In this document: piece by piece, positions 12,248 through 31,751 of the stretch
How the letters are laid out: every line of letters begins with the position of its first letter
How positions within the stretch are numbered: position 1 is the first letter of the stretch
Assembly: GCA_965217115.1 (NCBI GenBank)
Contig: OZ244239.1
Span: 1,216,001-1,280,000 of the forward strand
Length of the DNA: 64,000 nt
Direction of reading: 5' to 3'
From: Bdellovibrionales bacterium
Lineage (GTDB): Bacteria; Bdellovibrionota; Bdellovibrionia; Bdellovibrionales; CAYMLA01
Translations under genes and position numbers: made by a program
The notes under the pieces: model-generated
Database searches by the model: none
Told to the model about the DNA's origin: nothing
What the model saw: only the letters and a program-made list of their open reading frames with translations

Positions 12248-13128
12248 AATCGCTTCCATTGATTTAACTCTTTACGTAAATCAGATACGTATTTTTGGTC
12301 TAATTCGACCAGTGGTAACCTCACCTCTGGTGTAGGAATAATCCCCATAAGATACATCGCCATTTTTAAAGGCACAGGATTAGACTCAACAAACAAACTC
12401 TTAATTAGTCCTTGTGCCATTTTAAACTCCTCGTCTGTCTCTTTTCCGTTGGGATCAGCCATCCAAGACTTTATTTCTCTTGGAAAAATATGGGATAAAA
12501 CAGAAATAGCCCCATGCCCTCCTTTGCGCAAGAAAGGGACAAGAGTTTCATCGTCGCCAGAGAGGACTAAGAATCCATTGTTTTTTTCTGCTAAACCAGT
12601 AAATGGTTCCACCCGTGATAAATTGCCCGTCGCGTCCTTTACGCCTACAACATAGGGATTCTTCGCCAATTCTTTAATCGTCTCCATATCTAAAGTAACG
12701 CCTGTCCTTCCCGGAACGTCGTAGAGAATAATGGGCCCCTGAACACTCTTGGCCACTTCACTAAAGTGGGCTAGCAACCCTTTTTGAGAAGGTTTGTTAT
12801 AGTAAGGTGTCACAACCAACACTCCGTCTGCTCCCCAGTCTAAAGCTCGACGGGAAAAATTAATTGTACAGCTCGTGCTGTTACTTCCCGTCCCAACAAT
12901 CAAGGGAACTCTATCCTGAGCCACCTCTCTCACAAGATGAAAAATCTGTTTTTTTTCATCCAAAGACAATGTTGACGACTCTCCCGTTGTTCCTAAAATA
13001 ACAAAACCATTCACTCCATCTTTTATCTGATTTTCTACTAGCTGAATAAGGGACTCTCGATGAATCACGCCATTTTCAAAAGGCGTGATCAACGCCGTAT
13101 AAAGACCTTTTTTTATTTCAAATTCCAT
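12244..13128 (-). CDS. dapA: 4-hydroxy-tetrahydrodipicolinate synthase
   Basis: TALITPF, GTTGES, TPYYNKP, LYDVPGRTG, GVKDATG, SGDD, NPVPLK. Confidence 0.96.
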   Translation of the reverse strand: MEFEIKKGLYTALITPFENGVIHRESLIQLVENQIKDGVNGFVILGTTGESSTLSLDEKKQIFHLVREVAQDRVPLIVGTGSNSTSCTINFSRRALDWGADGVLVVTPYYNKPSQKGLLAHFSEVAKSVQGPIILYDVPGRTGVTLDMETIKELAKNPYVVGVKDATGNLSRVEPFTGLAEKNNGFLVLSGDDETLVPFLRKGGHGAISVLSHIFPREIKSWMADPNGKETDEEFKMAQGLIKSLFVESNPVPLKMAMYLMGIIPTPEVRLPLVELDQKYVSDLRKELNQWKRL

Positions 13129-27967: not shown

Positions 27968-28633
27968 TTAATAACAAAAATAAAAATAAAAGGGTTGCAC
28001 AATAAAACCGAGGGCCACAATCGCAGAATAAAAATAACCGATTTTCTTTATTTTCCCATGAAATTCTGTGGAAAAAAGCCCCAAAGACTGGAAGGCAGAA
28101 GCAAAACCATGGCTCAGATGAAACCACAACCCCAACAAGCAGACCCCGTACCAAGAGACGAAGATGGGATCTTGAAAAGATTCTCTCAATAAACGAAAAA
28201 TATCTCGCATTTTTTCACCACCGTACTCCACCTCGTAGTAAGTTCCGTACTTAAAGGAGATTAAATGGTAAACAACAAAGACAAGGATCAATGACCCATG
28301 GAAAATCATCGTTCTCGAAGCCAAGCTCGCCGCTCCATCGCCACTGGGAAGCTGCGCGTCTCCCGTTTGACGGGCTCCTCTGTTTTTCAACGTCAGTTGA
28401 ATTGCTAAAACAAGATGAGCCAATAAGGTCAAAGATAAAATGGCCTCCACCCCGTACAGAAGGGGCAAATTAGACACAATGCCATGGGCATAGCGATTGT
28501 AAACTTCTGGGCCAAAAAAAATAAGCATATTGCCCAACATATGCCCCATGATAAAACCACACCAGACAAGCCCAGTGATTGCCATTACGTATTTTTTACC
28601 AATGGATGTTTTAAAAAATTGAATCTGACCCAT
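27968..28633 (-). CDS. sdhC: Succinate dehydrogenase cytochrome b subunit (single-subunit anchor)
   Basis: SIGKK..MAITG, heme His motifs HMLGN / HL / HLSHG; directly upstream of sdhA. Confidence 0.92.
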   Translation of the reverse strand: MGQIQFFKTSIGKKYVMAITGLVWCGFIMGHMLGNMLIFFGPEVYNRYAHGIVSNLPLLYGVEAILSLTLLAHLVLAIQLTLKNRGARQTGDAQLPSGDGAASLASRTMIFHGSLILVFVVYHLISFKYGTYYEVEYGGEKMRDIFRLLRESFQDPIFVSWYGVCLLGLWFHLSHGFASAFQSLGLFSTEFHGKIKKIGYFYSAIVALGFIVQPFYFYFCY

Positions 28634-28761
28634 AACGATGCCCCGTGCCGAATTTCTACCTACTAAATATGTCGCTCTTTTTCAAAAAACACAAGGGTTC
28701 AGCTCTTTAACCCTGACCTAAGCTTGGCCACAACAGGCATCATGGGCACAAGAAAAAACAA

Positions 28762-29271
28762 CTAATACTCAGTCAATACTTTTTTTTCATTGATGCTAAA
28801 CTCTGTCGAGTAGCCGTATGCGCCAGTCGTCACAAGATTCTCCGAATTGGTCGTCCGAGTCGCGCAAGCAGTAAATTTGCTGGGGCCAGGCATACAGACC
28901 CCTTGGACATACGAGAACGCAGTGTAGGGGGTAGTGAGAAAACTCACCCCCTGGGTGTAGAGGCTCGGCGCGGTACCCCCAATATTTATACCAAAACCAA
29001 TTCGACCAAAATACTTTAACGGAACAGGCTCCAATCCAATCTCTGAAAGATCCCCAGAGTAGGTCTCATATTGAGCATAATGAGTCTTCTCTGCCGTGTA
29101 TATTCCGGATAAAACACCCTTTACCTCTGCTTTCTCGGCTCTCTCTATATAACCCTCGTAGCCTGGGACAGCAATGGCTGCCAACACGCCAATAATGGCC
29201 ACTACAACCATCAGCTCGACTAAAGAGAACCCCGCCGCTCTGGAAAGGATTTTAATTTTTCTAGAATCCAT
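28762..29271 (-). CDS. Type IVa pilin-like protein, copy 1
   Basis: Prepilin cleavage site AAG|FSLVELMVVVAIIGVLAAIAVP with E5; C-x9-C near the C-terminus. Confidence 0.92.
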   Translation of the reverse strand: MDSRKIKILSRAAGFSLVELMVVVAIIGVLAAIAVPGYEGYIERAEKAEVKGVLSGIYTAEKTHYAQYETYSGDLSEIGLEPVPLKYFGRIGFGINIGGTAPSLYTQGVSFLTTPYTAFSYVQGVCMPGPSKFTACATRTTNSENLVTTGAYGYSTEFSINEKKVLTEY

Positions 29272-29499
29272 CTCTTAATTTTACCACTTCTCTTTTAAAT
29301 GGACAAAGTTTTTACCCTTTTGAGACTATTTCCATTTTAAAAATAGACCTTTTAAAAAATGGAATCTGACCCATAACGATGCCCCGTGCCGAATTTTTAT
29401 CGACTAAATATGTCGCTCTTTTTCAAAAAAAACAAGGGATCAGCTCTTTAACCCTGACCTAAACTTGGGCACAACAGACATGGGCACAAGAAAAAACAA

Positions 29500-30006
29500 C
29501 TAATACTCTCTGAACACTTTTTTTTCATTGATGCTAAACTCTGTCTTCTGACCGAAAGCATTAACAAACAGCACATTAGTCGAGTCGGTCGTCCGAGTAG
29601 CGCAAGCATTAAATCCGCCGGGGCGAACCATACACACCTCTGGGCTATACCCTGACACAATGTAGGGGGCAGTGCCAAAACTCACCCCATGGGTGTAGAG
29701 ACTCGGCGTGGCCCGAGTGTTTGTAGAAAAACCAATTAGACCAAAATACTTTAACGGAACAGGCTCCAATCCAATCTCTGAAAGATCCCCAGAGTAGGTA
29801 TCATATTGAGCATAATGAGCCTTCTCTGCCGTGTATATTCCCGATAAAATAGCCTTTACCTCTGCTTTCTCGGCTCTCTCTATATAACCCTCGTAGCCTG
29901 GGACAGCAATGGCTGCCAACACGCCAATAATGGCCACTACAACCATCAGCTCGACTAAAGAGAACCCCGCCGCTCTGGAAAGGGTTTTAATTCTTCTAGA
30001 ATCCAT
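29500..30006 (-). CDS. Type IVa pilin-like protein, copy 2
   Basis: Same N-methylation motif; C-x9-C; divergent C-terminal loops. Confidence 0.92.
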   Translation of the reverse strand: MDSRRIKTLSRAAGFSLVELMVVVAIIGVLAAIAVPGYEGYIERAEKAEVKAILSGIYTAEKAHYAQYDTYSGDLSEIGLEPVPLKYFGLIGFSTNTRATPSLYTHGVSFGTAPYIVSGYSPEVCMVRPGGFNACATRTTDSTNVLFVNAFGQKTEFSINEKKVFREY

Positions 30007-30240
30007 CTCTTAATTCTACCATTTTTCTTTTAAATGGACAAAGTTTTTACCCTTTTGAGACTATTTCCATTTTAAAAATAGACCTTTTTTAAATAAAAAA
30101 TTGAATCTGGCCCATAACGATGCCCCGTGCCGAATTTTTATCGACTAAATATGTCGCTCTTTTTCAAAAAACACAAGGGTTCAGCTCTTTAACCCTGACC
30201 TAAGCTTGGCCACAACAGGCATGGGCACAAGAAAAAACAA

Positions 30241-30765
30241 CTAATACTCAGTCAGTTCTTTTTTTTCATTGATGCTAAACTCTGTCAGGAGGCCTTGGCC
30301 AGCACCCCAAACATCGGAGTGATCGGTCGTCCGAGTCGCGCAAGCAGTAAAATTTCCTCTGCCAGCCATACAAAGATTTTCGTGATACATGTTCACAAGG
30401 AGGTATGAATCGGTAAAACCCACCGTCTGGCTGTAGAGGTGGTTCGACCCGGGTTCTTCCGATTCAAAAATATAATCGTAGGCACCAAAACCAATTAGAC
30501 CAAAATGCTTTAACTGAACAGGCTCCAATCCTATCGCTGAAAGATCCCCAGAGTAAATATTATATTGAGCATAGTAGGTCTTCTCTGCTCCATATATTCC
30601 GGATAAAATAGCTTTTACCTCTACACTCTCGGCTCTCTTTATATAACCCTTGTAGCCTGGGACAGCAACGCTTGCTAACACGCCAATAATGGCCACTACA
30701 ACCATCAACTCGACTAAAGAGAACCCCAGCTCACTGGGAAGGTTTTTAATTCTTCCAAAATCCAT
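30241..30765 (-). CDS. Type IVa pilin-like protein, copy 3
   Basis: ELG|FSLVELMVVVAIIGVLASVAVP; C-x9-C; most divergent copy. Confidence 0.92.
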   Translation of the reverse strand: MDFGRIKNLPSELGFSLVELMVVVAIIGVLASVAVPGYKGYIKRAESVEVKAILSGIYGAEKTYYAQYNIYSGDLSAIGLEPVQLKHFGLIGFGAYDYIFESEEPGSNHLYSQTVGFTDSYLLVNMYHENLCMAGRGNFTACATRTTDHSDVWGAGQGLLTEFSINEKKELTEY

Positions 30766-30974
30766 TTCTTAATCCTACCACTTCAAATTCTTCAATGGGG
30801 TAAAAAGAAAAAAACTTTGCGTGGGGCCAACCACTCTGATTATTCCGTCCTAAAATGGGATAACTCGCCGTTTAAGTTTCTTTTACAAAACTAATCTATT
30901 GCCAAAACCATTGTTTTTAGGCACGGTTTTAAGCTCGTACTGAGAAAAAAATATTTACGCTTGGGGTGCTTCAG

Positions 30975-31751
30975 TTGAGAATTTATGTCTGTATTAAGCA
31001 AGTTCCTGACACAGAGACAAAAATAACAATTAATAACACAGACAGTGGTATTAGCGACAGTGGTGTAAAGTGGGTTATGAACCCCTACGACGAACTTGCT
31101 GTGGAAGAGGCAATTCATCTTAAAAGCCGTCACGAGGGGGCCGTTGTTACGATCATTAGCTTAGGCCCTAAGAAAAGGCTTGTTGATGTTTGCCGCACAG
31201 CTTTAGCCATGGGAGCTGATGATGCTATTGTTGTCGACGCTCCAAACAACCTAGACAGCCACGCAACGGCCAAGGCGTTGGCGGCAGCTATAAGTGCTGA
31301 GGGCCCTTGCGATTTTATTTTCACTGGAAAACTTGCCATAGACAACAACAACTCTTGTGTCAGCCAAATGGTTGCAGAGTTTCTGGGGCTTCCCCATGCA
31401 ACGGTTGTTAGCAAGTTTGAAGAACTTGACGGAAAATCCGTTGTCGAAAGAGAGGTTGAAGGCGGCGCTAAGGAAATTCTTGAACTTCATGGCCCCTCCG
31501 TTGTCGGCGCAAACAAGGGCCTCAACTCTCCTCGTTACCCTAGTTTACCTGGAATTATGAAAGCAAAAAAGAAGCCTCTTAAGGAGATCGAGCTCTCAGC
31601 CCTTGGCGTTGACGAATCCCAACAAAAAACAAGACTCAGCGGCTACCAGCTCCCCCCTGAAAAACCTCCTGTTAAAATAATTTCTGGAGACGCAGACACC
31701 CAGGCACAACAGCTTGCCTCCCTTCTTCGCAATGAAGCTAAGGTTATTTAA
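30975..31751 (+). CDS. etfB: Electron transfer flavoprotein beta subunit
   Basis: VCIKQVPD, MNPYDELAVEEA, ALAMGAD, PRYPSLPGIMKAKKKP; TTG start. Confidence 0.96.
   Translation: MRIYVCIKQVPDTETKITINNTDSGISDSGVKWVMNPYDELAVEEAIHLKSRHEGAVVTIISLGPKKRLVDVCRTALAMGADDAIVVDAPNNLDSHATAKALAAAISAEGPCDFIFTGKLAIDNNNSCVSQMVAEFLGLPHATVVSKFEELDGKSVVEREVEGGAKEILELHGPSVVGANKGLNSPRYPSLPGIMKAKKKPLKEIELSALGVDESQQKTRLSGYQLPPEKPPVKIISGDADTQAQQLASLLRNEAKVI

Follow-up and report, generated by a model that had tools for sequence, protein, structure and literature searches.

A tandem array of type IVa pilin genes with polymorphic heads in a Bdellovibrionales bacterium

The 64,000-nucleotide window analyzed here (the whole stretch of DNA, genome positions 1216001-1280000) belongs to the single-contig genome of an uncultured Bdellovibrionales bacterium (GCA_965217115.1; 2,170,531 bases, 99.4% complete), the sole member of its genus in the genome collection used. 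It contains a tandem array of three pilin genes, denoted A, B, and C (genome 1244762-1246765), lying between two flanking genes and separated by nearly identical spacers. Positions are those of the window unless marked as genome. The genes, their parts, and their neighbors are the following:

30966-31751, plus strand: upstream flank, a divergent gene that, from its sequence, we take to be etfB-like
30241-30765, minus strand: pilin copy A (174 amino acids), first in the array and most diverged, with a head unchanged in all four sequencing runs described below
30007-30240, minus strand: A-B spacer, comprising the A 3' region, a remnant of an sdhC start (about 30094-30115), and the promoter-like site of B
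29500-30006, minus strand: pilin copy B (168 amino acids), an open reading frame (ORF) with a PF07963 match
29272-29499, minus strand: B-C spacer, built as the A-B spacer, with its sdhC-start remnant at about 29353-29374
28762-29271, minus strand: pilin copy C (169 amino acids), with a pilin fold in an AlphaFold2 model
28993-29271, minus strand: 5' constant region of C, which covers codons 1-93 and comprises leader, alpha-1 helix, and first strand
28808-28992, minus strand: variable head of C, predicted loops between conserved strands, with counterparts on the same strand at about 29546-29727 in B and about 30287-30486 in A
28779-28807, minus strand: 29-nt block without differences among A, B, and C, encoding the TEFSINEKK strand
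28609-28761, minus strand: third spacer copy, entering the real sdhC start at 28633
27968-28633, minus strand: downstream flank, the first of the sdh genes, which we take, from sequence and context, to be sdhC-like, with relatives in 37 of 41 genomes

The initial annotation of this DNA described three intact type IVa pilin genes in a repeat with a 741-bp period, and the first part of this description is borne out: all three co-oriented ORFs, set in units of ~740 bp, are open despite indels, and each encodes an N_methyl domain (PF07963) scoring above the cut-off (3/3), with a G/FSLVE motif typical of the class III signal peptide. The period holds for the spacer (741/741), but the genes are spaced by 735 and 759 bp from start to start and by 738 and 741 bp from stop to stop. 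An AlphaFold2 model of C, the only copy modeled (108-row alignment; mean predicted local distance difference test score [pLDDT] of 73), shows a helix at residues 17-68 and five strands at 88-93, 104-106, 134-139, 157-161, and 166-168, that is, the long alpha-1 helix and antiparallel beta-sheet head by which type IVa pilins are recognized. When this model was searched against the PDB, ranks 1-11 were all type IV pilins, the best being the Myxococcus xanthus pilus (8tj2; E 1e-3). Mapping of the variable segments onto the structure, as the initial annotation had proposed, places those of C in predicted loops, with segments 105-119 and 145-153 modeled at pLDDT <50. The sequence blocks described earlier as invariant are indeed so in A, B, and C, but they are mostly predicted beta-strands (FG.IGF, F.ACAT, TEFSI, and EY match strands; LY and CM do not, CM containing one of the two kept cysteines) and, as shown below, they undergo synonymous change in a further allele.

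Divergence among the copies is uneven along the unit. In the first 260 coding nucleotides, B and C differ at 7 sites, 6 of them non-synonymous, exactly reproducing an earlier manual count, and over codons 1-93 (29728-30006 in B) the two differ at 8 of 279 nucleotides. The spacers are 94-97% identical (10 mismatches in 228 aligned bases for A-B, 4/150 for A-C, and 9/150 for B-C), confirming that the intergenic DNA is nearly identical. By contrast, about 13% of sites in the 5' half of A differ from B and C (proportions of differing synonymous and non-synonymous sites, pS 0.13-0.14 and pN 0.12-0.14). Because the 5' half of A is thus only about 87% identical to the others, the constant scaffold is a property of B and C, with A sharing the spacer; the proposed homogenization of the scaffold stands for the spacers and the B/C stalk but not for the coding stalk of A. 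Among codons specifying the same residue in B and C, synonymous differences occur in 1 of 84 within codons 1-93 and in 8 of 42 thereafter (Fisher 6e-4, with the boundary picked after inspection), and a boundary-free maximum chi-square permutation test places the break at column 102 (p 0.013). This deficit of synonymous differences in the B/C stalk relative to the head points to recent homogenization.

Variation in the population was assessed in four public runs (X1-X4), which by record derive from one sample of one study and were available as contigs; these drop rare variants and give no phasing, the pieces listed amount to 32 of 110 and 24 of 75, and contig depth is no copy number. The contigs carry all three heads, A, B, and C, and two head alleles that are missing from the assembly, here called D and E. 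The A head is represented by a single contig with no other letters over 30225-30706 (X1, X2, and X3) and 30293-30706 (X4). The flanks, over about 2.4 kb, show no other letters in X1 and X2, two in X3, and three in X4, and X2 contigs of 27,083 and 28,438 bases extend up to the array. The depth of the B head contig is 7.49, 29, 5.92, and 4.57 in X1-X4. These data also bear on the possibility that the assembler joined end to end two alleles, B and C, from different strains. The sample is mixed at the locus and none of the contigs crosses the array, as such an artifact would have it; nevertheless, the heads in X2 lie near flank depth (A 33.6, B 29, and C 29, against flanks of 32.6 and 40.4), and collapsed stalk contigs reach about twice the flank depth in X1 and X3 (23.1 and 24.5). 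As far as contigs show, the array is not an artifact, the probability of which we consider close to nil.

The two additional alleles depart from C within the following stretches:

28836-28938, minus strand: tract of C (103 nt) in whose place allele E has 103 other letters, with the joint at 28835-28939
28809-29148, minus strand: stretch where allele D departs from C (record of 448 nt at depth 5.4 in X2; depth 2.3 in X1)

Allele E, recorded as a contig of 236 nt in X3 at depth 11.5, which equals the flank depth there (9-14), and found at depth 5.8 with loose ends in X1, is identical to C over 28790-28835 and is C-like again from 28939, with six other letters and an in-frame 3-nt insertion. A loose end of 30 letters, read by hand, contains no stop codon and encodes ATRTN in place of ATRTT, the block also showing two synonymous changes; it thus appears to be conserved at the protein level, not as a signal in the DNA. 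Allele D meets the B/C stalk near 29149, carries 25 other letters within 29008-29178, is unlike C between 28809 and 29007, and rejoins the reference at 28808. Among the listed contigs, D occurs in X1 and X2, with identical listed differences, and E in X1 and X3 but not in X2 or X4; gaps in coverage (C-type 28936-29033 in X3; E in X2 and X4) were not counted as absence. Four short motifs from the parts of D and E in hand had no match in the genome with up to one mismatch (0/4). Further variants lie in the leaders, at 29237, 29245, 29969, 29972, and 29980. Hand arithmetic on contig depths would put the number of units above three in X1 and below three in X4, which is a hint only. Separately, short X1 and X3 contigs omit about 96 spacer bases (29377-29474 or 30119-30214) at a depth of about 4 and with sides of 28-30 letters, which makes them weak; a deletion of this kind would take out the duplicated sdhC upstream region between copies.

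The same contigs could reflect co-occurring strains with stable sets of heads, subject to occasional whole-gene replacement and no ongoing exchange within the array. The heads differ by run, D is the same in both runs that contain it, and X3 and X4 show their few flank differences, all in keeping with such fixed sets. The structure of E is of another kind: its head matches C at both ends but not in the central tract, making it a sub-genic mosaic. Moreover, homogenization of spacer and stalk requires recombination between copies. We therefore regard fixed paralogue sets as improbable.

The origin of the array can be traced in part from its spacers, each of which ends in a copy of the first eight codons of the downstream sdhC-like gene; these remnants accordingly mark a duplication breakpoint. 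For comparison, we examined the sdhC loci of 29 relatives with 1.5-kb flanks (30 of 37 matches were fetched, one being the source genome). The etfB gene lies head-to-head with sdhC in 19 of the 29, and a pilin match occurs in 0/29; the pilin gene thus appears to have come to the site in the source lineage. In a tree of 65 rows, covering part of the protein matches, A, B, C, and a fourth paralogue form one long branch standing apart from the pilA of this genome (409082) and its two neighbors, a placement to be read with caution as long branches meet there. The fourth member of the subfamily is solitary (genome 294083-294613) and 41% identical to C. The pilA locus itself (genome 407495-409708) consists of pilA, two extra pilins, and a gene that we presume to be pilG-like; the extra pilins have a ratio of non-synonymous to synonymous substitution rates (dN/dS) of 0.75, their divergence is more even than in the array, and the duplication unit ends in the first codons of the next gene, as the array unit does at sdhC.

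Each copy may be transcribed on its own, judging from promoter-like sites in the spacers:

30013-30041, minus strand: sigma-70-like site before B (TTGTCC-17-TAGAAT, with TG), ending 6 nt before the ATG, a predicted leaderless promoter
29278-29306, minus strand: sigma-70-like site before C (TTGTCC-17-TAAAAT, with TG), a copy of the B site and not independent of it

A similar extended -10 was seen by eye before A. These sites are predictions from consensus matching, since the scan returned 4 sites against 4.7 expected by chance. No terminators were called in the array spacers, the single Rfam match to a structured RNA was far under the cut-off (22 vs 73 bits), and no RNA dataset was listed among the runs containing the array region.

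The alternation of conserved blocks with variable segments had led the initial annotation to the minicassette architecture of Neisseria. A programmed system would combine a single expressed copy with silent donors, whether through antigenic variation as in pilE/pilS or through a head switch driven by a recombinase. Besides this alternation, the presence of several alleles in one sample and of recA would fit such a system. Several other features expected of it were not found. Searches of the genome with the array (blastn and tblastn) recovered only full-length paralogues and a 68-nt N-terminal match to pilA, with no truncated donor or partial copy elsewhere; the 5' constant region is retained in every copy, and promoter-like sites precede B and C. 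A genome-wide scan for guanine quadruplexes with G3 tracts gave its nearest matches at genome 1164940 and 1275091 and none between. The segments of D and E have no donors in the genome by the four motifs above, and the synonymous changes in E are at odds with blocks serving as DNA signals. In agreement with the earlier claim, no recombinase or reverse transcriptase was detected in the window among five families searched; the recombinases detected are tyrosine recombinases at genome 605410, 743415, and 1679109 and a resolvase at 1448809, and no match to PF01548 (IS110/Piv) is present in the genome. With three Neisseria-type features (silent donors, quadruplex, templated segments) lacking in these searches, the minicassette interpretation does not hold, and programmed switching is very improbable.

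Two further mechanisms were rejected. The Moraxella Piv-type switch combines inverted pilin copies with a linked Piv/IS110 or invertase gene; here, the copies are co-oriented, IS110/Piv is lacking, and the recombinases are distant. A diversity-generating retroelement was dismissed because the single reverse transcriptase of the genome lies 620 kb away without a repeat match in 11 kb around it, and no adenine enrichment was seen in 6/6 directed comparisons. The reverse transcriptase locus (genome 1867567-1877763), behind rpsG, encodes a 315-amino-acid reverse transcriptase (1868366-1869313), which we take to be retron-like, with an upstream helix-turn-helix-like gene and a downstream membrane protein in what is presumably a restriction-modification-like neighborhood.

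The interpretation that we favor, with a probability of roughly 65%, is an ordinary tandem array reshuffled by RecA-type recombination, which would keep spacers and stalks alike while heads are exchanged among copies and strains. Under this scenario, a lineage-specific pilin gene would have landed between etfB and sdhC, as the relatives suggest, followed by tandem duplication with one breakpoint eight codons into sdhC, where the remnants are observed. Recombination would then maintain the similarity of spacer and stalk, as the synonymous sites indicate, while at least four head types (B, C, D, and E), seen in contigs, would occupy the internal positions and A would remain constant. The 5' constant region is a likely recombination anchor, and the 29-nt TEFSINEKK block together with the adjoining spacer a likely 3' anchor, so that heads would be exchanged in patches between them, with A staying apart. 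The head segments of D and E probably came from outside the assembled genome, either from other strains or from lost copies, given the absence of the four motifs, and may have arrived by transformation, as the comEC- and dprA-family genes suggest. In addition to these and recA, the genome encodes mutS-family genes, pilD, six T2SSE-family ATPases, and four secretins. Each copy, with its own predicted promoter, could feed the type IVa machinery of the genome, yielding mixed or alternative pili, and variants with new surfaces would be favored by selection, with pilus-binding phage the most plausible agent. The array, the sdhC remnants, the uneven divergence, and the extra alleles are observed directly; that recombination caused the pattern, that transformation supplied the segments, that the copies are co-expressed, and that selection acts through a given agent are inferences.

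Several results weigh against this reading. Runs X1-X4 are probably the source of the assembly and so not independent of it, and no single contig spans the whole array or phases D or E onto an array position. Allele D spans 448 nt versus 438 nt of C if its ends are anchored as they seem. The longest-run test on the synonymous sites of B and C falls short of significance (p 0.12), and synonymous differences are not heterogeneous in A-B (p 0.44) or A-C (p 0.60). For the heads, dN/dS is 1.19 (A-B), 2.11 (A-C), and 1.15 (B-C), in no case below 1, but the interval of pN-pS lies above zero only in A-C (1/3 pairs), with uncertain loop alignments. Finally, in the same genome, which holds 51 neighboring paralogue pairs in 18 groups, we tested 27 pairs from 17 groups as a control, 24 of them outside the pilin array and 23 of these computable; dN/dS is >=1.1 in 10 of the 23, and downstream DNA is at least 85% alike in 5 of the 24. 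Head values near 1 are thus not pilin-specific, and relaxed selection accounts for the ratio equally well. Of the rapid head diversification claimed earlier, real variation of heads in the population (D and E) stands, whereas positive selection, which may act on the heads, is weakly shown.

These numbers would also fit a neutral birth-and-death process: a small, repeat-rich genome frequently duplicating genes for exported proteins would accumulate surplus pilins that drift because selection on them is relaxed, and D and E would be long-standing alleles of strains with no adaptive role. Head dN/dS is indistinguishable from 1 in two of the three pairs, several of the 18 paralogue groups display block mosaics of their own, and the canonical pilA locus sits elsewhere. 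Drift sits less easily with the absence of stops and frameshifts in A, B, and C at a head dS of 0.3-0.5, the retention of the strands and both cysteines, the excess of pN over pS in A-C, and the coexistence of several head types while the flanks and A are nearly monomorphic. Overall, we consider the neutral process unlikely, albeit with real weight.

The candidate agents that would select among heads in a recombining array are phage and prey. Type IV pili serve as phage receptors. In Bdellovibrio, one study reports that predation requires the type IVa pilin whereas prey binding does not (PMC5430801), and a 2026 preprint retains the type IVa pilus as a candidate for early prey contact (bioRxiv 10.64898/2026.07.08.737194). 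We weakly prefer phage over prey range. A more far-reaching and decidedly doubtful extension is that the bacterium, as a presumed predator, keeps a population-wide pool of head segments; from this pool, segments would enter the internal positions of an array that lacks donors, is fully expressed, and has one constant copy, producing mosaic pili tuned to prey or phage. Along with at least a dozen similarly mosaic arrays of exported proteins, this would amount to genome-wide surface diversification without a dedicated enzyme.

The array is real, with population-level support, and represents a known kind of tandem pilin locus rather than a new system. The closest resemblance is to pilA1-3 of Streptococcus sanguinis. 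In that species, strains carry pilA genes in sets of two or three, of which two usually share >90% identity and the third 65-85% (PMC11121087), and the tandem pilins, pilE1-2, form heteropolymers (PMC6497953). Shared features are full-length adjacent paralogues, two copies closer to each other than to the third, a conserved helix, and a less conserved head; in S. sanguinis, copies are more alike within than between strains and copy number varies by strain. Whereas those genes encode proven major pilins in a pil operon, the present array belongs to a lineage-specific subfamily, lies apart from pilA/pilG and the machinery, and is carried by a diderm, Bdellovibrio-like host, with duplicated promoter-like sites and predicted co-expression. 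With Neisseria pilE/pilS (PMC6796969), it shares a constant 5' region, short blocks between variable segments, mosaic alleles, and available RecA, but unlike that system, it has no 5'-truncated silent donors and no upstream quadruplex, its new segments are untemplated in the genome, and all copies are intact. The class III signal and pilin fold recall PilA, the major type IVa pilin of Bdellovibrio bacteriovorus (PMC5430801; bioRxiv 10.64898/2026.07.08.737194), to which the array proteins are only 33-43% identical in the alignment, from a long branch of their own apart from the pilA of the genome. Xylella fastidiosa pilA1-3 likewise represents several pilA paralogues per genome, there with non-equivalent functions, but the available sections of that paper (PMC9956873) make no mention of tandem layout or gene conversion, unlike the array copies, which appear recent and recombining. 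Further multi-pilin cases are described in PMC12102498.

The significance of the locus is twofold. It documents head polymorphism of a pilin array in a Bdellovibrio-like bacterium within one sample set, making phage or prey selection on predator pili testable from existing long reads. In addition, it illustrates that a pattern of conserved blocks and variable segments does not by itself indicate a programmed system: most of the blocks here correspond to predicted strands, and other arrays in this genome are built in the same way. As judged from these comparisons of sequence, the pilin array is one of many mosaic arrays in the genome, and a system special to the locus is not supported. Tandem arrays of exported proteins with a block mosaic and dN/dS around 1 lie at genome 934858-939730 and 1560497-1567371, and further ones at 2154451-2166485, 527610-530955, and 95850-100277. 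The genome also contains dispersed non-coding repeats of about 120-440 bases with 89-97% identity, at 12559-12860 and dozens of other places.

Outside the source genome, no close relatives of the array proteins were present among the best 120 of 524 protein matches, the best named matches being Bdellovibrio PilA-type pilins. No independent assembly of the array was recovered: a shorter-length search gave 0/3, and scans of metagenomes and genomes confirmed 0/161 and 0/41 stretches, respectively. An 18-nt pattern from the array matched three loci, all by chance. The one other genome of the family had no array match and the clusters were singletons, in collections that may omit very near genomes. 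Among 18 pilin loci from 10 related genomes, no pair exceeded 90% identity over the first 240 nt or 59% downstream. Likewise, no report of a recombining pilin array in Bdellovibrionota was found in the full-text literature, a search that extended to neither subscription journals nor supplements.

Other pilin arrangements did emerge among the relatives. A 1.6-Mb genome (G018) has two pairs of oppositely oriented pilA genes (L022:2812 and 5521; L023:2582 and 5059), in which the paired genes match at 87% and 100% of the 150 bases upstream and the heads are about 55% alike; from their sequences, these inverted pairs are candidates for head swapping by inversion. A congener, G028, has a similar inverted pair (L024). 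A 2.6-Mb relative (G037; L029-L032, L037, and L038) yielded 36 matches to the pilin query, many in duplicated pairs, representing a large pilin expansion.

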